A stretch of DNA of 12,283 nucleotides from Gemmatimonadota bacterium (GTDB lineage: Bacteria > Latescibacterota > UBA2968 > UBA8231), in contig JAYPJE010000093.1 of NCBI GenBank assembly GCA_038128265.1, positions 1 to 12,283 on the forward strand, written 5' to 3'. Under the pieces are notes generated by a model. It was not told where the DNA came from. It saw only the letters and a list, made by a program, of their open reading frames with translations, and did no database searches. Positions 914 through 12,283 of the stretch are shown in pieces (the first letter of the stretch is position 1; each line of letters starts with the position of its first letter). The translations under genes were made by a program, and so were the position numbers.

Positions 914-942
914 TTGACGCTGCTGCGCGCACAACATACGTT
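914..942 (+). promoter_or_regulatory. Putative sigma70-type promoter for the 1070-2152 gene
   Basis: TTGACG (914-919), 17-nt spacer, TACGTT (937-942). Implies a transcription start near 948-950. Confidence 0.6.
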
Positions 943-949
943 TGGACCA

Positions 950-1069
950 GTGCTCCGGGGGAGCCTCCAGTCTGCGGCAAGGGTATAAACCCACCTTTTG
1001 AAGACGACATAGACCTTCTTTCAGCTCGTTTTAAGCAGACGCCGAGCGCATGTGAAAGAGGGTATTTTT
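950..1069 (+). ncRNA. Putative structured cis-regulatory 5' leader RNA sequestering the RBS
   Basis: Hairpins GCTCC/GGAGC (952-956/960-964) and GGGT-ATAA-ACCC (981-992). Stem ACCTTCTTTCA (1013-1023) with TGAAAGAGGGT (1053-1063) covers the SD. Inner stem GCTCG (1024-1028)/CGAGC (1043-1047). Loop GCAGAC (1035-1040) is complementary to GTCTGC (970-975). Confidence 0.6.
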
Positions 1070-2152
1070 ATGTCTAAGCAACTACCTCCTCAGCCACACC
1101 TCGATTCCCTAAAAAAACAGGCGCGCCAGCTGCTAAACGGCTATCGAGCCGCAGAGCCAGAAGCGCTGCAGCGCGTGGGCGATATGCAGTCCGAACTGCC
1201 GCCTTCGGCGCAGGAGGCGTTTAGCCTGCGTCAAGCGCAGCAAGTCATTGCCCGCGAGTATGGCTTTAGCTCTTGGCAGCAGTTGGCTGCATTCGTAGGT
1301 CAGCCGATCGACGAGCGCCGAGACAAATCTGCCTATCTCGAATACTTTGTGCGCATGGCAATCAAGCTAATGGACGATCTGGGCGATGAGAATAAGACCT
1401 ATGTGCTCGATAGGATTCAGCAGGCCCTTCCTCAATACGCAGGGTGTACGCGTCAAGAGGTGGGCGAGGCGCTGTCGCTGCAGGAGGCGCAATTGGTCGT
1501 AGCGCGCCTGTACGAATGCGATAGCTGGGAGGCGTTTGCGGCAACGGTGAAACAGTACAAGCACAGCGACGGCCCGCTGATGGATGGACAACAGCTGCGC
1601 GGCCTGGAGGCTCTGCACGGCGAATTTGCGTCCGCCCTAGCCGCCAACTTCAGCTCTAATGCTGCTGCGGCACAGCGCGTAGACGTGGGCATGGCCTTTG
1701 TCGACCAGACGACATACGGCGAATTCGTCCGTTCAATAGCGGGCCCCACCTGCGGCTTTGTCGTGGAAATGGACGGTCTGAATGGTCCCATCGTCGGAGA
1801 CATCGCCCTGCCCGTGGCGCGCGGCCTGCTGGGCTCCGGGCTGGAGGATTCCAGTCTAGCGGCGGGAGAAATGCAGCGCATGCAGCGCATTGCCGAGCAC
1901 ATTGCACGCGACGTCAAAAACGCATGGATACCGTTTATAGACGTAGCGGTGCGCACCGTGCAGATGCATACTGACCCGCGCGCGCCGCGCGCCGTGCCGC
2001 TGCACGAGATCGTCGGTCTACTTGCCTTCGAGGCCAACGGCACAGGGCCGGAAGCGCCTTTCTGCGGTCTGGTCAGCCTGTGCTATCCGGCGTCGCTGCT
2101 CGAAGCATTTTTGCCTGACCTGAGCGAACTGGCGGAGAATCGAGCGACGTAG
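1070..2152 (+). CDS. Fusion protein (360 aa): two N-terminal helical repeats (LKKQAR...AQxxIAREYGFxSW type) plus a FliM middle (CheC-like) domain
   Basis: ATG at 1070 with GAGGG SD (1058-1062) is preferred over GTG at 1052. Repeats at about aa 5-76 and 89-160. The C-terminal half has QLRGLEALHGEFA, VDQTTYGEFVRSIAGPT, AWIPF, HTDP...VPLHEIV and GLVSLCYPASLLEAFL, collinear with FliM blocks (lH.nFAr, vdQ.tY.EFi.Sip.Pt, aW.p, EtnP...vpp.E.v, G.mniciP...lEp). Confidence 0.8.
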   Translation: MSKQLPPQPHLDSLKKQARQLLNGYRAAEPEALQRVGDMQSELPPSAQEAFSLRQAQQVIAREYGFSSWQQLAAFVGQPIDERRDKSAYLEYFVRMAIKLMDDLGDENKTYVLDRIQQALPQYAGCTRQEVGEALSLQEAQLVVARLYECDSWEAFAATVKQYKHSDGPLMDGQQLRGLEALHGEFASALAANFSSNAAAAQRVDVGMAFVDQTTYGEFVRSIAGPTCGFVVEMDGLNGPIVGDIALPVARGLLGSGLEDSSLAAGEMQRMQRIAEHIARDVKNAWIPFIDVAVRTVQMHTDPRAPRAVPLHEIVGLLAFEANGTGPEAPFCGLVSLCYPASLLEAFLPDLSELAENRAT

Positions 2153-2176: not shown

Positions 2177-2210
2177 GAGCGTCTCCGCCAGCGCGGGGGC
2201 GCTCTTTTTT
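2177..2210 (+). terminator. Rho-independent terminator
   Basis: 12-bp stem GAGCGTCTCCGC (2177-2188)/GCGGGGGCGCTC (2193-2204) with two G-U pairs, CAGC loop, then T6 (2205-2210). Begins 24 nt after the stop at 2152. Confidence 0.85.
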
Positions 2211-2237
2211 GGCATCCTCTGGTGCGAAGCGTATGTT
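2209..2237 (+). promoter_or_regulatory. Putative sigma70-type promoter of the hydrolase/Asp-box/sulfotransferase operon
   Basis: TTGGCA (2209-2214), 17-nt spacer, TATGTT (2232-2237). GGAG SD at 2261-2264. Confidence 0.45.
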
Positions 2238-2270: not shown

Positions 2271-3551
2271 ATGCAAGCACAGCGCAAAAAAATAGACGCC
2301 CTCTTTTCTCGCTACGACAGGGAGAACTCGCCCGGCTGTGCGCTGGCCGTCATCGACGGCGGTCAGGTCGCCTACGCGCGCGGCTATGGTATGGCCGATA
2401 TCGAACGGGGCAAAGGGATCACGCCGCAGTCGGCCTTTTACATCGCTTCGGTTTCCAAGCAGTTCACCTGCGCCTGCATGGTCTTGCTGGCCCAGCGCGG
2501 TGCGATTTCGCTGGACGACGACATTCGCCGCTACGTGCCCGAGCTGCCCGCCTACGGCGCGTCGATTACCATTCGCCACCTGATCCACCACACGAGCGGG
2601 CTGCGCGACAACCTCGACCTGTGGGCAGCGGCTGGCCGCTCGTTTGTGAAACCGTTTGACAACGAAGATTGCATGGCTCTGGTGCGCACGCAGCGCGGCG
2701 TCAACTTTGCGCCGGGGGAAAAACACCTCTACTGCAATACCGGCTACAAGCTGATGGCCGAACTGGTACCGCGCGTGACGGGACAGAGTCTGCGGCAGTT
2801 TGCCGAGGCCGAAATCTTCCGACCGCTGGGCATGCGGCATACGTTTTTTGACGATAGCAACGAAAAGATTGCGCGCCGCGTCGTTAGCTACCGAGAGCGC
2901 GAGGGAAAATTCCTGCCGCAGGAAAAGGCCTTTACTATTGTCGGCAGCGGCGGATTGGTGACGACTGTAGAAGATCTCTTTCTGTGGGATCAAAACTTCT
3001 ACCACTGCACCGTCGGTGGCACTAAGCTCGTCGAGCAAATGCAGGAGCGCGGTCGGCTTAACGACGGCACGCTGCTCGACTACGCCTTTGGCCTGAGCCA
3101 CGGCGTGCGCAACGGCCTGCCGACCATTGGCCACGGTGGCGTTATGCTCGGTTTCCGCACCCACCTGCTGCGCTTTCCATCGATTGGCTTTAGCGTCGTG
3201 GTGTTGGGCAATGTCGATACCTTTGACGCGTATGCTAGCGCGCGGCAGGTCGCCGATATCTGCCTGGCAGATCGCTATCCGCTGGCCCAGTTTACCGGTG
3301 CTTTTCGCTGCGACGAGCTCGATAAGACGTGCAGTATATACGCGCGCGCCGGTGCACTCGTTACCTACTTAACTGGCGAACGATTGCAGCTGGAAAGCGC
3401 GGGTGTCGATTGCTTTGGCGGCAGCGGATTTACCGTTGCCTTTCGCCGCCGCGCTGGGCGCGTAGACGGCTTTGTTCTCAGCACGGATCGCGCGCAGGGC
3501 ATGGTGTTCCATCGCGTCGCCGCTCGCCGCCGGCGTGCCGCGAGGAGATAA
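2271..3551 (+). CDS. Serine hydrolase, beta-lactamase class C / D-aminopeptidase-like (peptidase S12) family, with a C-terminal beta domain
   Basis: SPGCALAV, FYIASVSKQFT (SxxK), LIHHTSGL, FAPGEKHLYCNTGY (YxN), IFRPLGM, GSGGLVTT and IGHGG. No N-terminal signal peptide. Confidence 0.92.
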   Translation: MQAQRKKIDALFSRYDRENSPGCALAVIDGGQVAYARGYGMADIERGKGITPQSAFYIASVSKQFTCACMVLLAQRGAISLDDDIRRYVPELPAYGASITIRHLIHHTSGLRDNLDLWAAAGRSFVKPFDNEDCMALVRTQRGVNFAPGEKHLYCNTGYKLMAELVPRVTGQSLRQFAEAEIFRPLGMRHTFFDDSNEKIARRVVSYREREGKFLPQEKAFTIVGSGGLVTTVEDLFLWDQNFYHCTVGGTKLVEQMQERGRLNDGTLLDYAFGLSHGVRNGLPTIGHGGVMLGFRTHLLRFPSIGFSVVVLGNVDTFDAYASARQVADICLADRYPLAQFTGAFRCDELDKTCSIYARAGALVTYLTGERLQLESAGVDCFGGSGFTVAFRRRAGRVDGFVLSTDRAQGMVFHRVAARRRRAARR

Positions 3552-3553
3552 AC

Positions 3554-4627
3554 ATGTCGACTGTGCGCAGAGACTTTTCCATACCGCTGGTCGATCTGGC
3601 CGGCGAGGTTGACCGCCAGGTCATCGTCGACCGCGAAGAGGGCCAGTACTTGGGCCATCCGACGACGGCGCTGCTGGACGACGGCCAGACGATGATAGTC
3701 GTCTACCCCAAAGGCCACGGGCGCGGTGCGGTGGTCATGAAAAAGAGCTACGACGGCGGCTTGACGTGGAGCGAGCGGCTAGGCGTGCCGGACAATTGGT
3801 CTACCTCGCAGGAGGTGCCGACGCTCTATCGCACGGTCGATGCGCGCGGGCAAAAGCGCATCGTGATGTTTTCTGGACTCTATCCGATACGCATGGCCTA
3901 CAGCGAAGACGAGGGCGAGACGTGGTCTCCGCTCGAGCCGATTGGCGACTACGGCGGCATCGTGGCCATGGCCGATGTGGCGCGCCTGCGCGATGGACGC
4001 TATATGGCGCTCTTTCACGACGATGGCCGCTTTTTGCGCAACGGCGGTCAGCAGACAAACGTCTTTGAGGTATATGCGGTGTATTCCGACGACGGCGGTC
4101 TGCACTGGGGCGAACCGCAGTTCGTAACCGCGCATCCGCAGGCGCATCTGTGCGAACCGGGCATCGTGCGCTCGCCCGATGGCCGTCAGCTGTGCATGCT
4201 GCTGCGCGAAAACAGCCGCCAGTTTAACGCCATGGTCATTTTTTCCGACGACGAGGGGCATAGCTGGTCGACCCCGCGCCAACTGCCCGGCGCACTCACT
4301 GGAGACCGTCACCAGGCAATCTACGCACCCGATGGCCGGCTGATTATTTCTTTCCGCGATATGGCACACGAGACGCCGACGTGGGGTGATTGGGTTGGCT
4401 GGGTCGGCACCTACGACGATCTAGTCAACGGGAATGAAGGACAGTACCGCGTGCGTTTTATGGACAATCTCAAAGATGCCGACTGTGCCTACCCGGCGCT
4501 GGAACGGCTGCCGGATGGCACCATTGTAACGACGACCTACGGACACTGGCAAGAGGGAGAGGCGCCCTACATCGCCAGCGTGCGCTTCACCCTAGATGAG
4601 TTAGATGCCAACGCAAAGGAACGGTAA
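3554..4627 (+). CDS. BNR/Asp-box repeat sialidase-like beta-propeller protein
   Basis: ATG at 3554 after GAGGAG (3542-3547). Four Asp boxes: SYDGGLTWS, SEDEGETWS, SDDGGLHWG, SDDEGHSWS. Also LCEP, LLREN and DCAYP motifs. Confidence 0.88.
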   Translation: MSTVRRDFSIPLVDLAGEVDRQVIVDREEGQYLGHPTTALLDDGQTMIVVYPKGHGRGAVVMKKSYDGGLTWSERLGVPDNWSTSQEVPTLYRTVDARGQKRIVMFSGLYPIRMAYSEDEGETWSPLEPIGDYGGIVAMADVARLRDGRYMALFHDDGRFLRNGGQQTNVFEVYAVYSDDGGLHWGEPQFVTAHPQAHLCEPGIVRSPDGRQLCMLLRENSRQFNAMVIFSDDEGHSWSTPRQLPGALTGDRHQAIYAPDGRLIISFRDMAHETPTWGDWVGWVGTYDDLVNGNEGQYRVRFMDNLKDADCAYPALERLPDGTIVTTTYGHWQEGEAPYIASVRFTLDELDANAKER

Positions 4628-4636
4628 AACACCGCC

Positions 4637-5356
4637 ATGTCTCTGATTACGGTTATTGGCCGCGGCCACTCCGGCACGCGCGCTATCTCGCACACGCTCT
4701 ACGCCAGCGGCGTCTTTATGGGCAACTGCCTCAATCGCTCGGGCGACAAGATTCCGCCACAAAAGCTTTACGACGCCTGCCGCGTAATGGCTAAATACGT
4801 CGAGTGGAAGGGCGGCCTGGAGTGGAATTTTGAGCCGCTGCACACCATGGATATCGATCCGGAATTCACCGACTTGGTCAACGAGTATTTAGACGACGTG
4901 CTGCGCGATCGCTCGGAGCACAGGGGCTGGAAGCTGCCGGAGACGACGCTGATCTATCCTTGGATTTTGCGCATGTTTCCCGACATCAAGTACATCCACT
5001 GGATTCGCGATCCGCGCGATAGTATTATCGGCGGACATAAAACAGATGACTTGAGCGACTTCGGTATCGATTATCCGCGCACGGACAATGTGCGCCAGCG
5101 CCGCGCTATTTCGTGGAAGTACCAGTACGAGCTAATGAAGGCCACGCCCAAGCCGGCTCACTGCATCCACGTGCGCTTTGAGGACTTTGTGCTCAAGCAA
5201 GAGGAGACGCTGTCCCGACTCGAAGCCTTTCTCGGCTTTCCACTGGGACGCATCATCGTGCGCACGGATTCAATTGGCCGCTGGAAGACAGACGCGGAGC
5301 AGCACACCTTTGACTTTTTCCGCGACGCGATGGACGAGAGCGGCTACGCAGAATAA
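4637..5356 (+). CDS. PAPS-dependent sulfotransferase family protein
   Basis: 5'-PSB-like loop IGRGHSGTR, GWKLP, 3'-PB motif IRDPRD, VRFEDFV...LEAFLG and IGRWK. Confidence 0.88.
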   Translation: MSLITVIGRGHSGTRAISHTLYASGVFMGNCLNRSGDKIPPQKLYDACRVMAKYVEWKGGLEWNFEPLHTMDIDPEFTDLVNEYLDDVLRDRSEHRGWKLPETTLIYPWILRMFPDIKYIHWIRDPRDSIIGGHKTDDLSDFGIDYPRTDNVRQRRAISWKYQYELMKATPKPAHCIHVRFEDFVLKQEETLSRLEAFLGFPLGRIIVRTDSIGRWKTDAEQHTFDFFRDAMDESGYAE

Positions 5357-5369
5357 GTTTGGCGAACGC

Positions 5370-7235
<1,866 letters not shown>

Positions 7236-7247
7236 GTCATTCCTATC

Positions 7248-7287
7248 AAAAAAGGGGCTGCGCCGCGTCTGTTCGCGATGCAACCCC
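7248..7287 (-). terminator. Intrinsic terminator-like hairpin inside the typA 5' leader (putative attenuator)
   Basis: Minus-strand RNA GGGGUUGC-AUCGCG-AACAGA-CGCGGC-GCAGCCCC-UUUUUU: 8-bp outer stem, inner stem and U6, ending 3 nt before the typA SD. Confidence 0.6.
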
Positions 7288-7374
7288 CCAATGTACCTGG
7301 TCGCCGCACGAGACAACTCTACGCGGCGTTTTTCGCTGTGCGTTTCGTTTGTTGGTGTGTAATGCGCTGCAAAA

Positions 7375-7403
7375 AATGTAGGCGAGGACGAGAAAATCAG
7401 CAA
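7375..7403 (-). promoter_or_regulatory. Putative sigma70-type promoter of typA
   Basis: Minus strand TTGCTG (7403-7398), 17-nt spacer, TACATT (7380-7375). Implies a leader of about 130 nt. Confidence 0.55.
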
Positions 7404-7406
7404 GAC

Positions 7407-7436
7407 TTGCCCACAGCTCCATAGCTCGTCTATACT
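7407..7436 (+). promoter_or_regulatory. Putative sigma70-type promoter of the creatininase-family gene
   Basis: TTGCCC (7407-7412), 18-nt spacer, TATACT (7431-7436). Strong GAGGAGGAG SD before the ATG at 7495. Confidence 0.55.
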
Positions 7437-7494
7437 AAGGCTCGATCGCATCCGACCACTAAAAAATAGGCCCGTAACGAGGAGGAGTTATACC

Positions 7495-8298
7495 ATGCGC
7501 TGGGAAAATTTAACCGTGCCTCACTTTGTCGATGCCGTGGAGAAATGCCAGGGTGTTGGCATTGTGCCCATTGGCGTGATCGAGGCTCACGGTAGTCATC
7601 TGCCCTTGGGCACCGATATGTTTGAATCGCATTGGACGGCCTGTCGCGCCGCCGAACGCGAGCCGGCGCTGGTTTTTCCGGCCTACCCCTACGGCATCAA
7701 CCACGAATCGGCGCACCTGCCCGGCGCCATCGTCTTTAAGCGCGAACTGGTCTTTGCGCTGCTGCAAAACGTCTGCGATGAAATGGCGCGCCACGGCGTG
7801 AAGAAGATTATTCTGCTCAGCGGGCACGGCGGTAACCGCTACTTTTTGCCGCTCTTTGTGCAGACGCTCTTAGAAGAAGACCGCGACTACTGCGTGTACT
7901 ATGCCACGCCCAAGGCCGAGGGCACGGAGGGCGTGCTCGAGACGGGGGAAACGGGCCATGCCTGCGAAGCGGAGACCAGCACGAGCCTCTATATCAACGG
8001 CGAATTAGTCGAGATGGACGAGGTGCCCGCCGAGCCCTTTTCCAGCCTCCGACGCAACGCCGAGTTAAAGGAAGCCGGCGCCTATTCGCCGATGGACTGG
8101 TATGCGATGTATCCGCGCATGTATGTCGGCGACGCCAGCAAAGCCACGGCCGAAAAGGGTCAGCAGCTCAACGAAGCGCGCGTCGAGGGTCTCGTGCGCA
8201 TTATCCGCGCCGTTAAAAACGACGAAGTGACAGAAGGCTTAATCGACGAGTTTGTAGGGGGCATTGAAGAGCCGAGCAATCCGTGGCAAGACGCGTGA
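7495..8298 (+). CDS. Creatininase / creatinine amidohydrolase family protein
   Basis: Metal-binding motifs PIGVIEAHGSHLPLGTD, HLPG, GHGGN and GHACEAETS, plus GDASKATAEKG. Confidence 0.93.
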   Translation: MRWENLTVPHFVDAVEKCQGVGIVPIGVIEAHGSHLPLGTDMFESHWTACRAAEREPALVFPAYPYGINHESAHLPGAIVFKRELVFALLQNVCDEMARHGVKKIILLSGHGGNRYFLPLFVQTLLEEDRDYCVYYATPKAEGTEGVLETGETGHACEAETSTSLYINGELVEMDEVPAEPFSSLRRNAELKEAGAYSPMDWYAMYPRMYVGDASKATAEKGQQLNEARVEGLVRIIRAVKNDEVTEGLIDEFVGGIEEPSNPWQDA

Positions 8299-8370
8299 AG
8301 CGCTGGTTTATACCGGCACCCCTTTTACTTATTTTCTGCGCGTGCCCTCTTATTGGTGAAGGAGTCCGAT

Positions 8371-9435
8371 ATGTCCAGTGTGCGTCCCAAGGTTTTGATA
8401 GCGTGCGACAAAAACGTGCGGGAAAATTACTTGGCGCCCGAAGAAATACAGCGCTTAGAAGGGCTGGCCGACTGGGAGTGGTTTGAATGTGCGGGTGGCG
8501 GTATCTACGAGATACCCGACGATCCGCAAAAGGTTGAGGCCATTCAGCCACACTTGGCCGATAAGGACGCGCTGATCGTTTGCCACGGCGCGCCGCGCAT
8601 CGACGCGGACCTGCTATCGCACGCACCCGGTCTGAAAATTATTGGCGAGCTCGAAGGCGATCGCTTCGCCGCGCGCATTGATCTGGATGCGGCGTGGGCG
8701 CGGGGCGTGCGCACCGTAGATACGACCAACGGCTCGTCCTATCCGGTTGCCGAATGGGCGTTGGGCATGATCTTGGCGTGTTTGCGCAACGCCGGCGCGC
8801 ACTTTCGCCGCCTGATTGCCGGCGATACGCGGCGCGATCCAGACGTGGTGCGCCTAATGGGTGGGATGCTGCACGGCAAGCGCGTCGGCCTGATCGGCGG
8901 CGGCCATATGGGACGCCGGCTCATCAAGCTGCTGCGTCCGTTTGAGGGCGAAATCTGGGTGCACGATCCGTATTTGCCGCGCGAGCTAGCGGAGGCGGTG
9001 GGCTTTGTGCAGACGACGCTCGACAATGTGTTTTCCCACTGCGACATCGTCGTATCCGTTGCGCCGCTGACGCCGGCCACGCGCGGTATGATCGGCGCGC
9101 GCGAGCTGGACCTGCTGCGCGCCGGCAGCGTGTTTGTCAACGTCTCGCGCGGCGCCGTCGTCGATTCGGCCGCACTGATTGCTCGCCTCAAGCGGGGTGA
9201 CATCGTCGCTGGCATCGAGGCCTTCGATCCGGAGCCGATTCCGCCTGACAGCGAGCTGCTGCAGCTGGATAACGTATTTGTCAGTCCGCATTTTGGCTGG
9301 ATTACGGGCACCGACTATCCACACTTTTTTCCGCTGATGATCGACGAGTTTGAGCGCTTTTTTGCCGGTCACGAGCCCTACTTTGAGCTGACGCCGCGCG
9401 CCCAGGCCAACCGCACGGGCGCCGCGCCCGTTTAG
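8371..9435 (+). CDS. D-isomer-specific 2-hydroxyacid dehydrogenase family protein
   Basis: ATG at 8371 after AAGGAG. Motifs VAEWALG, LHGKRVGLIGGGHMG, HDPY, PLTPATRGMIG, FVNVSRGAVVD (Arg), DPEP (Glu) and SPH (His). Confidence 0.92.
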   Translation: MSSVRPKVLIACDKNVRENYLAPEEIQRLEGLADWEWFECAGGGIYEIPDDPQKVEAIQPHLADKDALIVCHGAPRIDADLLSHAPGLKIIGELEGDRFAARIDLDAAWARGVRTVDTTNGSSYPVAEWALGMILACLRNAGAHFRRLIAGDTRRDPDVVRLMGGMLHGKRVGLIGGGHMGRRLIKLLRPFEGEIWVHDPYLPRELAEAVGFVQTTLDNVFSHCDIVVSVAPLTPATRGMIGARELDLLRAGSVFVNVSRGAVVDSAALIARLKRGDIVAGIEAFDPEPIPPDSELLQLDNVFVSPHFGWITGTDYPHFFPLMIDEFERFFAGHEPYFELTPRAQANRTGAAPV

Positions 9436-10349
9436 CCTGAAAACCCAGGGGCACCGCGGCGGCGTCCCTGCTGTCGGTCGTAGGGCTGCGCTTCCTCTGG
9501 CTCCTCGTCCCCTTGCCAGGAATCCAATCCCAGCAGCTTTCTACCCAGCGGAGTGAGCGCCGCCGTCGTGCCGTGCCGGCGCTCCCAGTGGCGCGGGTCG
9601 CCGGGAAAGGCATCGCCCTCGGGTGCTCTGCGATGCAGCCAGGCGTCGATGCGCCAGGCGCGCGTGTCGGCGTTCCCTTCGCTGGCCGGCGCCATCGACA
9701 GGTACTGCGCCAGGCGCGGTGCCGCCGAGGTATTGGCACTGGTGCCGTGCGGCAGCAGGCTGTTCCAGATGAGCAGATCGCCCTTCTGCGTGGGTACTTC
9801 GACGACGTCAAAGCCGGTCAGGTCGGGGCGAAAGGGGTCGCGGTCTTCCGGCTGGGCGGCAATCCACGCGTCGAGCTGAGCGTAGAGAGCCGGCACGCAC
9901 TGAAAGCCGCCGGAACCGGCGGGGCAGTCGCTCAGGGATAGGAAACCCTGCACGCCAAAGGGCAGCGGCTTAAGCGAGGTGTCGATATCCCAGTGGATAA
10001 AGCCCTCAAACGCGCCATCGCCTCTGTTGGGTGGATTGAAGTTGCAGCGATCAATGCTCACCCACAGCGCCTGCGTTTGCCATAGGGCGGCAAACGCCTC
10101 GTGGATGCGCGGCCACTGGCGCGTGGCCCACAGCGCCGGATGATGGTAGAGTTCGACCATGCCGGCGCCGTTGAGTTCGGGCAGGCCATTGGCACGCTCG
10201 GGTGTTGGATACCACGTCTGCGGATCGCCCGGATCCATCTCGCCAAATTGCCAGATTGCCTCGGCTGCCTCGTCGAGCAGTGCGCTCGGTGCGGCATCGG
10301 CTACGACGACATAGCCGTTGGCGCGGAAAAAATCCAGATCGACGGACAC
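9432..10349 (-). CDS. Phytanoyl-CoA dioxygenase (PhyH) family Fe(II)/2-oxoglutarate dioxygenase
   Basis: Probable GTG start at 10349, 4 nt after the upstream stop. Motifs FFRANGYVVV, HWD (HxD), GGFQCVP, GDLLIWNSLLPHG (distal His) and PRLAQY. The ORF-track extension to 10628 overlaps the upstream gene. Confidence 0.88.
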   Translation of the reverse strand: MSVDLDFFRANGYVVVADAAPSALLDEAAEAIWQFGEMDPGDPQTWYPTPERANGLPELNGAGMVELYHHPALWATRQWPRIHEAFAALWQTQALWVSIDRCNFNPPNRGDGAFEGFIHWDIDTSLKPLPFGVQGFLSLSDCPAGSGGFQCVPALYAQLDAWIAAQPEDRDPFRPDLTGFDVVEVPTQKGDLLIWNSLLPHGTSANTSAAPRLAQYLSMAPASEGNADTRAWRIDAWLHRRAPEGDAFPGDPRHWERRHGTTAALTPLGRKLLGLDSWQGDEEPEEAQPYDRQQGRRRGAPGFSG

Positions 10350-10353
10350 AACG

Positions 10354-11070
10354 CTAGTCCGTAAAGCGCTGGCTGCCGTCAAAGGACACACGCGGCCAGC
10401 GCACGTGCGGCCAGTCGGAAAACCCGTGCGCGATATAGTGGTTGGCCAGCGAGTGACGGTAGGAGCCGGGCTGGCCGATGGGACCCCCTCGGTGCACCAG
10501 CACGCCGTCAAAGAACACGACATCGCCCTGTCGCACGCACACGGGGGTCTCCGGCAGCTCGTTGCGCGCACAGAGTTCGTCGACGGCCGCGTTATAGTCC
10601 CAGCCGTGAAACTCGCCCCCTTCGGCAAAGTCGCCGCCCGTCAGCAGGCGACCCTTGTGCGAGCCGGACTGCACCCACATGGCGCCGTTGTCCTCGTCGA
10701 CGTCCATCAGCGCGATCCACGCCGACATGCAGCCGGGTAAGTAGTACTGGTCTTGGTGGCGGCCCTGCTCCGATCCGACCCAGAAGTACATCGTCTGGAT
10801 GCCGTCGGGCTCGTCGCCGAGACACTGGACTAGCGGTTCTCTGAGTGGCGGTGCAATCAGCCACTCGCGCGCAGTCGGATCATACCAGTGCTGGTTATGG
10901 GTGCGCTGGAGCTCGTCGTCGGCGCGCGGCGCAAAGCCTTCTATGGACTTTTTGCCGGCGTGGAGGTCGAGCATATGGGCAACGAGCCCCTCGCACTCGT
11001 CGGCCGTAAAGACGCCCTCTACGACGGCCCATCCCTCGCGTCTGTAGTGTTCGGAATCTAGCGTGTTCAT
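10354..11070 (-). CDS. Phytanoyl-CoA dioxygenase (PhyH) family Fe(II)/2-oxoglutarate dioxygenase
   Basis: YRREGWAVVEGVF, HQD (HxD), SAWIALMDVDEDNGAMWVQSGSH, GDVVFFDGVLVHRG and RHSLANHY. GGAG SD upstream. Confidence 0.93.
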   Translation of the reverse strand: MNTLDSEHYRREGWAVVEGVFTADECEGLVAHMLDLHAGKKSIEGFAPRADDELQRTHNQHWYDPTAREWLIAPPLREPLVQCLGDEPDGIQTMYFWVGSEQGRHQDQYYLPGCMSAWIALMDVDEDNGAMWVQSGSHKGRLLTGGDFAEGGEFHGWDYNAAVDELCARNELPETPVCVRQGDVVFFDGVLVHRGGPIGQPGSYRHSLANHYIAHGFSDWPHVRWPRVSFDGSQRFTD

Positions 11071-11087
11071 CGCGCTCCGTCTCCGCG

Positions 11088-12283
11088 TTAGGCGGCGAGA
11101 ATGTTTTCGTAGACCTCGACGTGCTCGCCCTCGCGCTCGTCTGGATCGGCTAGCTTGAGCCAGACGGCCTGGTCCTCTTTGCGCGCGGCGATTTCTCCCA
11201 CGGCGCCGGCCTGCTGCGGTTCGGCGCCGCTCCAGATCACTTCGCCGTCCTGCAGAAATATGTACTGGCCGGCGTGCGCATCCAGCAGCTGCTCGCGGTG
11301 GTCGCGGTAAAAGAGGGCCTGCTCGCTGGCGGTTCGGCGCAGCCGATCGATCACTTCGGGCGGATCGGTTTTGGCCGAGTCGAATTCGGCAACGGGCAGC
11401 ACGAGCCCGTCCATTTCAAAGTCGATTTCGTCCAGATTGGTCGTGCCGAAGCCGTGCTCGGCGGCCACGGCCACCGGGCTTCGATCGCGGCGGAAGGGCG
11501 GGTGCGGCCAGTCGAGCGCGGGATTAGTACCCATCAGGTGTGAGCCGCAGGCGTCGGTGGCAATGACGTGGTCGCCTGCCACCAGGCAGTCGGCGATGCG
11601 TCCTTCGCCGTTCCACTCCATGCGCGCTTGGCCAGTTAGCCCATCGATAATATTCAGGCAGGGTTGGGCAATCATCCCTAAATCGGGTAGCACATAGGAC
11701 AGGCGAATAACGTGGTGAAAGTAGGTGCGCAGGCGGCCGTGCGGTGGAATGGGAGGCAGGCCAAAGAGATTTTTCAGACACAGCGTAATGCCCATAAAAC
11801 CGTGATTTTTCATTTTGGCGATAGAGACAAAGGCATCGGCTTCGCCCAGCGCAGCCGATAGCTGGTACTCGGAAAACATGAGGCCACCGCCCGGGACTTT
11901 GTAGCGCTCAAAGGGCGGGTCGCCCGCTTCGACGTAGCGCACGCCATACTCGTCGAGAATGGGCTTAGTATTGAAGTCGCTACCCGGGCGCTGACCCGGA
12001 GGCGCGGTGCTGGTATCGAGGGCAAAGAGCTCGGCGTCGGTGCGCTCGCGCAGCAGGCGCAAGCTGGCGCGCAGGACGTCGTCGTCGACCAACTCCTGCC
12101 GGCGGCCGCCGATGTAGCGAATGTCCTGCGTGCGGAACTGCATATTGACTTTGATGCCGACCTTTTTTGCACGCTCAATCTTTTCCCACGAGCGCGAAAG
12201 GGGCGCGGTGATTTGCTTTAATTTCTGGTAAATCTCGTCCAGCGACGCCTTGTGCGAGCAGTGCGTAGCGCGGACGGTGTAGT
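11088..12283 (-). CDS. DUF362 domain protein with a C-terminal DUF5678-like extension; 5' end lies beyond the window
   Basis: The frame stays open upstream of ATG 12143 to the window edge (YTVRATHCSHK...KKVGIKVNMQF). DUF362-type motifs IKxN, SIAKMKNHGFMGITLCLKNLFG, LNIIDG and DHVIATDA. Confidence 0.82.
   Translation of the reverse strand, partial: YTVRATHCSHKASLDEIYQKLKQITAPLSRSWEKIERAKKVGIKVNMQFRTQDIRYIGGRRQELVDDDVLRASLRLLRERTDAELFALDTSTAPPGQRPGSDFNTKPILDEYGVRYVEAGDPPFERYKVPGGGLMFSEYQLSAALGEADAFVSIAKMKNHGFMGITLCLKNLFGLPPIPPHGRLRTYFHHVIRLSYVLPDLGMIAQPCLNIIDGLTGQARMEWNGEGRIADCLVAGDHVIATDACGSHLMGTNPALDWPHPPFRRDRSPVAVAAEHGFGTTNLDEIDFEMDGLVLPVAEFDSAKTDPPEVIDRLRRTASEQALFYRDHREQLLDAHAGQYIFLQDGEVIWSGAEPQQAGAVGEIAARKEDQAVWLKLADPDEREGEHVEVYENILAA

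Follow-up and report, generated by a model that had tools for sequence, protein, structure and literature searches.

Why should a stand-alone copy of a FliM middle domain be preceded by a long, structured leader that buries its own ribosome-binding site, and what would such a leader respond to? The question is raised by a 12,283-nt stretch of DNA (the window in what follows) from a Gemmatimonadota bacterium placed by GTDB in Latescibacterota (GCA_038128265.1, contig JAYPJE010000093.1), for which a sequence-only reading had proposed a two-state switch between a predicted promoter and the ATG at 1070. The leader and its promoter are as follows.

914..919, + strand: -35 hexamer TTGACG, from the sequence, in an arrangement shared with homologous leaders
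937..942, + strand: -10 hexamer TACGTT, 17-nt spacer from the -35; transcription start inferred at about 948-950
949..1072, + strand: whole leader RNA, type I, from the inferred start to the start codon

The promoter prediction has stood up to comparison. A sigma70-type arrangement lies upstream of 34 of the 45 homologous leaders for which enough upstream sequence was available, against 3.5 in shuffles, and the -10 ends 6-12 nt before the first helix, P1, in 33 of the 45; the window's TTGACG/TACGTT pair fell below threshold in a consensus promoter scan and hence was unlisted there. From this spacing, the leader RNA probably begins near 949 and extends to the start codon, which follows the last base of helix P4 by 5-7 nt in 42 of 46 leaders. 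In the window the SD GAGGG occupies 1058-1062, ATTTTT 1064-1069 and the ATG begins at 1070.

Taken by itself, the window leader is a weak case: its folding z-score is -1.86, with 9 of 200 shuffles equally stable, and 47% of 2000 shuffled leaders contain some distal 6-bp complement. It is the comparison with homologues that makes the structure real. A 50-row alignment of leaders, chosen via the protein in related genomes (so that the rows are themselves related), was fitted to the four nested helices only, pk1, pk2 and P2 playing no part in the fit, and it retains all of the following elements.

952..964, + strand: P1, 952-955 with 961-964; 95.5% paired, 3 of 4 pairs changing on both sides
957..997, + strand: pseudoknot pk1, P1 loop 957-960 with 994-997; 91.4% paired (50 rows), 4 of 4 pairs changing on both sides
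967..977, + strand: P2 (2 bp), CC 967-968 with GG 976-977; 97.8% paired, closing the loop that presents 970-975
970..1040, + strand: kissing pair pk2, 970-975 with 1035-1040; 97.9% paired, 2 of 6 pairs changing on both sides
979..993 region, + strand: conserved unpaired A980 (47 of 48 rows), A979 (45 of 48) and A993 (43 of 48)
981-984 with 989-992, + strand: P3 hairpin; 97.9% paired, 4 of 4 pairs changing on both sides
1013..1063, + strand: P4, anti-SD, 1013-1023 with 1053-1063, 11 bp with one U-G; 96.6% paired, 8 of 9 counted pairs changing on both sides
1024..1047, + strand: P5, 1024-1028 with 1043-1047; 98.4% paired, 3 of 5 pairs changing on both sides, its loop presenting 1035-1040

Over the seven helices together, 96.5% of 1651 cells are paired and 25 of 34 pairs show a change on both sides, a level reached by none of 500 shuffles and far from the 43-52% of slid controls. 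The window carries a compensatory double change of its own in pk2 (U973-A1037, against C-G in 44 of 50 rows), and loci L224 and L227 carry additional ones; P2 is weakly supported, since its change from C-G to U-A occurs in three related rows only. The helices are mutually compatible and able to form simultaneously, and the resulting architecture is that of a 5' double-pseudoknot core that docks through the kissing pair onto a 3' hairpin in which P4 buries the SD. The computed unpaired probability is about 0 at 1056-1062, and the 3' hairpin is stable alone (-19.5 kcal/mol in the window, mean -17.8 over leaders). A structured, covarying 5' element with conserved unpaired bases and SD sequestration as its expression platform is of the kind expected of riboswitches. 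An extension of P3 that would pair GG 976-977 with CC 994-995 was considered (93% paired, no compensation, in competition with pk1) and not adopted.

Every feature named in the sequence-only reading is at its given position. The two main elements, the 11-bp stem over the SD and the long-range pairing of GCAGAC in the P5 loop with 970-975, are also conserved, and the wider expectation that a structured leader would precede homologues is also borne out, with the reservation that pk1 had been missed. The switching elements fared differently. CCUCC at 964-968, offered as an alternative partner of the SD, can be set against it in three registers, which pair in 65, 70 and 43% of cells; AAGG, from AAGGGU at 979-984, pairs with the two ACCUU copies (993-997 and 1013-1017) in 75 and 78% of cells, uncompensated, with 11 A-C cells where the partner U has become C. 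These counts use 48 rows, two partial rows having been dropped from the 50, and in the same rows the real user of ACCUU, pk1, is 93% paired with compensation, including nine A-U to G-C changes at that column. Terminator control, suggested by ATTTTT, is unlikely because the U-run is not conserved: the 8 nt 3' of the stem include at least five T in only 4 of 48 leaders. Since all conserved helices are compatible, neither the proposed alternative pairings nor any other conserved alternative gives a two-state fold visible in the sequence, although a switch that works by tertiary docking would escape a pairing test of this type.

The leader had not been recognized as a named riboswitch class, and a scan against Rfam 15 agrees, returning no match over it in the window, in 20 kin loci, in 20 loci from other phyla or in 16 further loci (11 of them type II, described below). 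A covariance model, R1, was built from 63 rows, 14 of which came from the 66 kin loci that had been fetched; the window leader, itself in the training set, scores 89.9 bits. R1 and blastn of the genome both recover the window's copy as the only one, with no second leader copy by either method. A search of 41 related genomes with the N-terminal 82 residues of the downstream protein gave matches in 17, as many as 10 in a single genome, and among the 66 kin loci R1 found 48 strong matches, two partial and 16 with none, so that 18 are without a full leader. Forty-five of the 48 strong matches lie directly before a gene encoding this N-terminal domain and the other three one short FliG_C ORF further upstream. 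Counted by genome, 16 of the 41 have RNA and domain, one the domain only, two the RNA only (one of these weak) and 22 neither, the kin not being independent of one another.

In the other direction, species-representative genomes were scanned with an RNA pattern that holds no protein information. The scan returned at least 120 stretches, and in 76 of the 80 copies examined the domain is encoded directly downstream, in keeping with the suggestion in the sequence-only reading that similar leaders precede other genes with this N-terminal domain. The remaining four comprise L100 and L107, before broken domain starts, L106, before an ankyrin gene with the domain gene second, and L070, with no clear gene. 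The record titles of the 80 span Acidobacteriota, Actinomycetota, Verrucomicrobiota, Planctomycetota, Gemmatimonadota, Alphaproteobacteria, Burkholderia, Lysobacteraceae, Limnocylindrales, Chthonomonadales, Eisenbacteria and Latescibacterota. Two distant groups, of 201 and 151 genomes, hold domain genes in 11 and 9 genomes respectively, and of the 21 loci examined there 15 have the leader, one has a partial leader and five have none.

The association frays at its edges, and leader-domain cassettes decay often. Among 26 further RNA matches in kin genomes, 14 precede the domain or a remnant at E < 0.001, three precede only its first 10-15 residues, two stand before a partner-type ORF without the domain, and seven have no recognizable gene. 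Genome G023 (91% complete) is a counter-case: it has two leaders that score strongly, while no intact domain is recovered at E 0.001, a remnant being present at L202. A leader without a domain gene in the stretch examined was seen at L227, L200, L070 and a MATE gene on an Agrobacterium plasmid. Intact-looking leaders also precede truncated or frameshifted domain genes at L189, L194, L199, L217, L218, L219, L222, L005 and L138, through decay or assembly errors, while at L023, L024, L027, L037, L047 and L287 only the 3' SD hairpin, whole or in part, is kept before the domain gene and the 5' core is lost. At L018 (1290-1500) a promoter and a GC-rich leader of structured appearance precede a domain gene; neither of our two models matches this leader, which is possibly another subtype.

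The gene that follows the leader in the window, and the hairpin downstream of it, have these features.

1070..2152, + strand: 360-aa ORF with two copies of a small helical domain and a FliM middle domain
1082..1285, + strand: N-terminal domain copy 1, residues ~5-72, candidate RNA-binding module; weak PF20066 match, helical model with pLDDT 82
1334..1549, + strand: diverged domain copy 2, residues ~89-160 (limits by eye); two profile hits in the ORF
1589..2116, + strand: FliM middle domain; PF02154 E 7.7e-14, under the NCBIfam full-length cut-off
2177..2212, + strand: intrinsic-terminator-like hairpin closing the one-gene unit, 12-pair stem and T run; scan not above chance (3 found, 2.9 expected)

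The genome's flagellar operon, on contig C37, has a FliM of its own, to which this domain is 36% identical. The N-terminal domain scores 20.7 bits against Glyoxalase_8 (PF20066), under the curated cut-off of 23.7, and profile comparison shows it to be homologous to the N-terminal 55 positions only of that family (hhalign 97.2%, E 3e-11). A combined profile of the domain matches at least 9,060 protein clusters at 50% identity. It is modelled as three helices (pLDDT 87), with conserved Lys/Arg at positions 15, 19, 23 and 62, an invariant Trp69 and no catalytic-looking invariant residues. The domain matches no known RNA-binding fold: Foldseek, VIA-align, a PDB sequence profile and the named clusters of the ESM Atlas gave no significant match to a known fold, and its best structural match (DUF1244 3fyb, Z 5.3, rmsd 2.3, 50 aligned) is within background; such null searches demonstrate neither a new fold nor a difference from known ones. 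No ANTAR model appeared among the Pfam matches of the window protein, nor among 25 of the 26 families matched by 58 domains.

What the domain is fused to varies widely. Of 60 kin proteins available 40 were scanned, 36 of them behind a leader, and in these the partners are ankyrin (12), FliG_C (7), FliM (2), bifunctional nuclease (2), APH (2) and, once each, FliG_N, a sigma54 activator, TPR and Clp_N, with seven having none; beyond the kin (35 proteins) they are mainly ankyrin, with methyltransferase and DUF1835 also present. No metabolite is common to these domains. What is shared is the N-terminal domain, and a loose detoxification theme remains. The gene context thus points to a protein ligand for the leader in preference to a metabolite.

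PF20066 proteins provided a second comparison. Among 121 alphaproteobacterial genomes, 10 have PF20066 genes, at 11 loci in total, and each of these loci bears a different conserved leader, here called type II. In 250 genomes of the class to which G041 belongs no PF20066 match exceeded the cut-off. Type II loci before PF20066 genes from Alphaproteobacteria and metagenomes are filed as L256-L266 and L298-L377. The scaffold is that of type I: a P1 whose loop pairs downstream (pk1), and a short P2 from which six nucleotides reach out to the loop of a 3' hairpin in a kissing interaction. In type II, GG-UGAA replaces GG-N-AA and P3 lies on the other side of that motif. Over 51 rows, 93.9% of cells are paired and 16 of 26 pairs change on both sides, 43 of the rows having been chosen by a pattern that fixes most of pk2 and P2 and leaves two varying letters free; one kissing position is C-G in 28 rows and U-A in 23 without a single mismatch. 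R1 misses type II leaders and the type II model, R2, misses type I. As there is no cross-detection, the kinship of the two rests on topology, on the GG-N-AA / GG-UGAA motif and on the homologous proteins, not on score.

An RNA-only scan of metagenomes for type II gave at least 120 matches, 80 of which were examined and 75 had enough sequence. Sixty-eight of these 75 copies precede the domain, fused to a glyoxalase fold, Clp_N, ClpX zinc finger, Lon N-domain or S1, and the other seven precede MATE efflux pumps without it. RNA subtype follows domain subtype: the better-scoring domain profile is the one of the same type at 76 of 76 type I and 69 of 69 type II loci, the type I profile having been built partly from those loci. 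RNA and domain go together across phyla whatever the fusion partner, and each domain subfamily has its own leader subtype.

The pumps are informative in this respect. The MATE subfamily concerned was found in 7 of 401 genomes, all seven related, and four of them have the leader. All four also hold a type II domain gene, in three with the order leader, domain gene, pump, and in G734 with a leader directly before the pump and a second leader before the domain gene elsewhere. In the three genomes whose pump has no leader, no type II domain was found, although two of them contain a more distant relative of the domain. Upstream of these two relatives a third, diverged leader can be made out by eye, with pk1-like and pk2-like complements and an R1 score of only 6-7 bits (L462:734-867, - strand; L463:211-356, + strand), a probable third subtype known from these two loci only. 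Pumps of this subfamily under a type II leader, directly or second after a domain gene, were noted at L315, L331, L338, L340, L347, L358, L369, L443-L446, L460 and L461. On plasmids, a leader, a MATE pump and then a glyoxalase-superfamily gene follow one another on pAMI4 of Paracoccus aminophilus, and an Agrobacterium fabrum plasmid has a leader before the pump with no domain gene annotated nearby, as far as the plasmid neighbourhood goes; blastn of plasmids with the window leader returned no match.

Together, an RNA and sister forms found almost only before domain-carrying genes and operons in many phyla suggest an undescribed feedback switch made of a protein and an RNA. The reading we favour, at a probability of roughly 55%, is that the domain binds the leader and controls translation while the fused partner serves as sensor or decoy. 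The leader would be the binding site of the three-helix domain, and the two together a portable one-component translational switch. The domain, through the conserved Lys/Arg of helix 1 and the invariant Trp, would bind the docked RNA and keep the SD closed, giving negative feedback, until the fused partner senses a signal (an antibiotic, a toxin or a partner protein) and the RNA is released, whereupon more of the sensor or decoy would be made, along with co-transcribed genes such as those for MATE pumps. Candidate sensors are ankyrin, TPR, FliG, FliM, Clp_N, ClpX zinc finger, Lon N-domain, glyoxalase fold, APH and methyltransferase; in the window it would be the stand-alone FliM middle-domain copy. 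The sensor or decoy role is proposed by analogy with ClpC2 and ANTAR proteins. Repression is preferred over activation by about two to one. Against it, the 3' hairpin is stable alone, so that extra repression may be unnecessary and activation is conceivable. The co-occurrence of the leader with the gene for a candidate nucleic-acid-binding protein is what is expected of an autoregulatory leader. Against binding by the domain, linkage between leader and gene also follows from co-inheritance, the domain has no match among known RNA-binding folds, and the kin loci without a full leader loosen the tie. More tentatively, we entertain a wider possibility: a superfamily of one-component translational regulators in which a new RNA-binding domain and co-diversified double-pseudoknot, kissing-loop leaders of three subtypes would act as a plug-in on essential-protein domains (FliG, FliM, Clp/Lon substrate domains, S1, sigma54 AAA+) and repeat scaffolds, turning these into inducible decoys or sensors that would respond to antibiotics, to toxins or to proteins of phages; efflux pumps would be members of the regulon.

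Small-molecule aptamers just as typically have a double pseudoknot with unpaired purines that never vary, and here the core and kissing pair might enclose a site for an ion, a metabolite or a toxic compound, whose binding opens or closes the SD hairpin, the domain co-travelling because it serves the same stress response. The aptamer-like architecture with its conserved unpaired nucleotides, the extent of the leader from promoter to SD, the 7 of 75 type II loci directly before MATE pumps, and the many partners of detoxification type (glyoxalase fold, APH, methyltransferase) would all suit such a new riboswitch. We nevertheless regard it as unlikely, because no alternative pairing is conserved, the association tracks an N-terminal domain of 50-70 residues and not an enzymatic or transport function, RNA subtype follows domain subtype, and the pump bears the leader only in genomes with the cognate domain (4 of 4 against 0 of 3).

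There are two further explanations. Promoter, leader and first domain might move together as a mobile or selfish cassette that captures coding pieces, the fold serving mobility, stability or an RNA antitoxin of the type III kind. Up to 11 copies per genome, a patchy distribution, the many copies before truncated or frameshifted genes, partners that are pieces of host proteins, and a nearest orthologue with a different upstream neighbour fit this picture, but an unsystematic look at the neighbourhoods viewed noticed no reverse transcriptase, transposase or repeat boundary, viral contigs yielded one real copy, and the domain has no residues that look catalytic, so that a cassette of this sort seems quite improbable. 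The viral copy is a type I leader with its domain gene on a contig of a viral collection (L419); the second viral match, L418, falls within coding sequence and appears fortuitous. Type III toxin-antitoxin systems have tandem pseudoknot repeats upstream of an endoribonuclease toxin; here each gene has a single leader with no repeat array, and PADLOC over 25 domains gave one weak AbiEii hit. Alternatively, the leader could be an RNA thermometer or an attenuator without a ligand, in which heat, or a general factor such as ribosomal protein S1 or a helicase, opens a G-U-rich SD stem and the tertiary fold only sets the threshold. In favour of this, U-G pairs are frequent at the SD in P4 and several partners are substrate-binding domains of proteases (Clp_N, ClpX zinc finger, Lon), yet it leaves the subtype-specific tie to the domain unexplained and, as thermometers go, needs neither conserved unpaired residues nor a 5' double pseudoknot; we consider it very improbable.

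Binding of the leader by the domain, the favoured reading, has partial parallels in several known systems. ANTAR domains are fused to varied sensor domains. Their target RNAs are pairs of hairpins whose loops are hexanucleotides (A1, G4), and by covering the RBS they can act on translation, so that, as in our proposal, a small helical domain recognizes structured RNA (PMC8164766). The RNA described here has no such pair of hexanucleotide-loop hairpins: it spans 120 nt and combines a double pseudoknot with a kissing interaction, and the targets are mainly genes of the domain itself. Mycobacterial ClpC2 binds cyclomarin A, then leaves its own promoter and acts as a sponge, according to PMC10030653, where it emerges as a partial copy of an essential protein (the Clp N-terminal repeat) joined to a nucleic-acid-binding module and self-repressing until the toxic ligand arrives; Clp_N is also a partner here. 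ClpC2 binds promoter DNA and acts on transcription (PMC10030653), whereas the present system has a covarying RNA over the SD and many partners. Ribosomal-protein leaders and 'protein binding candidates' resemble it as 5' leaders before a gene whose product probably binds them and limits its own synthesis (PMC11109978; compare PMC3616713), but the present leader has no rRNA mimicry or ribosomal gene, is multicopy and modular, and belongs to no Rfam leader family. The likeness to translational riboswitches is in a long-range loop pairing that joins a 5' domain to a 3' hairpin beside the SD, from which an unmatched sequence in Rfam, a non-metabolic gene context and the lack of a conserved alternative fold set our leader apart. 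Among such riboswitches, the ZTP, c-di-GMP-II, preQ1 and cobalamin classes have pseudoknot or kissing-loop aptamers.

A literature search outside subscription papers found no description of the leader, and a prior listing of the motif is possible; ankyrin and glyoxalase go unmentioned in the main texts of PMC5737381 and PMC11109978 and in one supplement of PMC8632094. It is rare for a complex RNA fold that occurs in many phyla to be absent from Rfam. Should the domain prove to be the ligand, a function would be at hand for a large unannotated family labelled 'glyoxalase superfamily protein' or 'ankyrin repeat protein', and with it an RNA-output counterpart to DNA-binding one-component regulators. 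The fused partners would then list host proteins under attack in soil and marine bacteria, and the subtypes, which do not cross, would offer orthogonal RNA-protein pairs for synthetic control of translation. Should the leader instead be a riboswitch, it would be a new class linked to detoxification genes.

Around the leader unit, the window encodes an epimerase, beta-lactamase-family, BNR-repeat and sulfotransferase proteins, a TypA/BipA GTPase, a creatininase, a 2-hydroxyacid dehydrogenase, two PhyH dioxygenases and DUF362 (5373-7451 on the - strand; 184-912, 2271-3551 and 3329-12143), with no sign of membership in the unit. Two more FliM-like genes of the same genome (G000 C9:3777-4763 and C14:68513-69073) lie outside the flagellar operon and are without the N-terminal domain. 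Stand-alone 96-aa FliG_C ORFs stand behind the leader at L002 (G000 C95:139-927), L215, L221, L227 and L233, and at three of these loci the FliG_C ORF is followed by a gene with two copies of the domain and FliG_C. Such a FliG_C pair opens contig C95 in the window's own genome, where the paralogue begins 138 nt from the contig end and its leader is cut off by that end.
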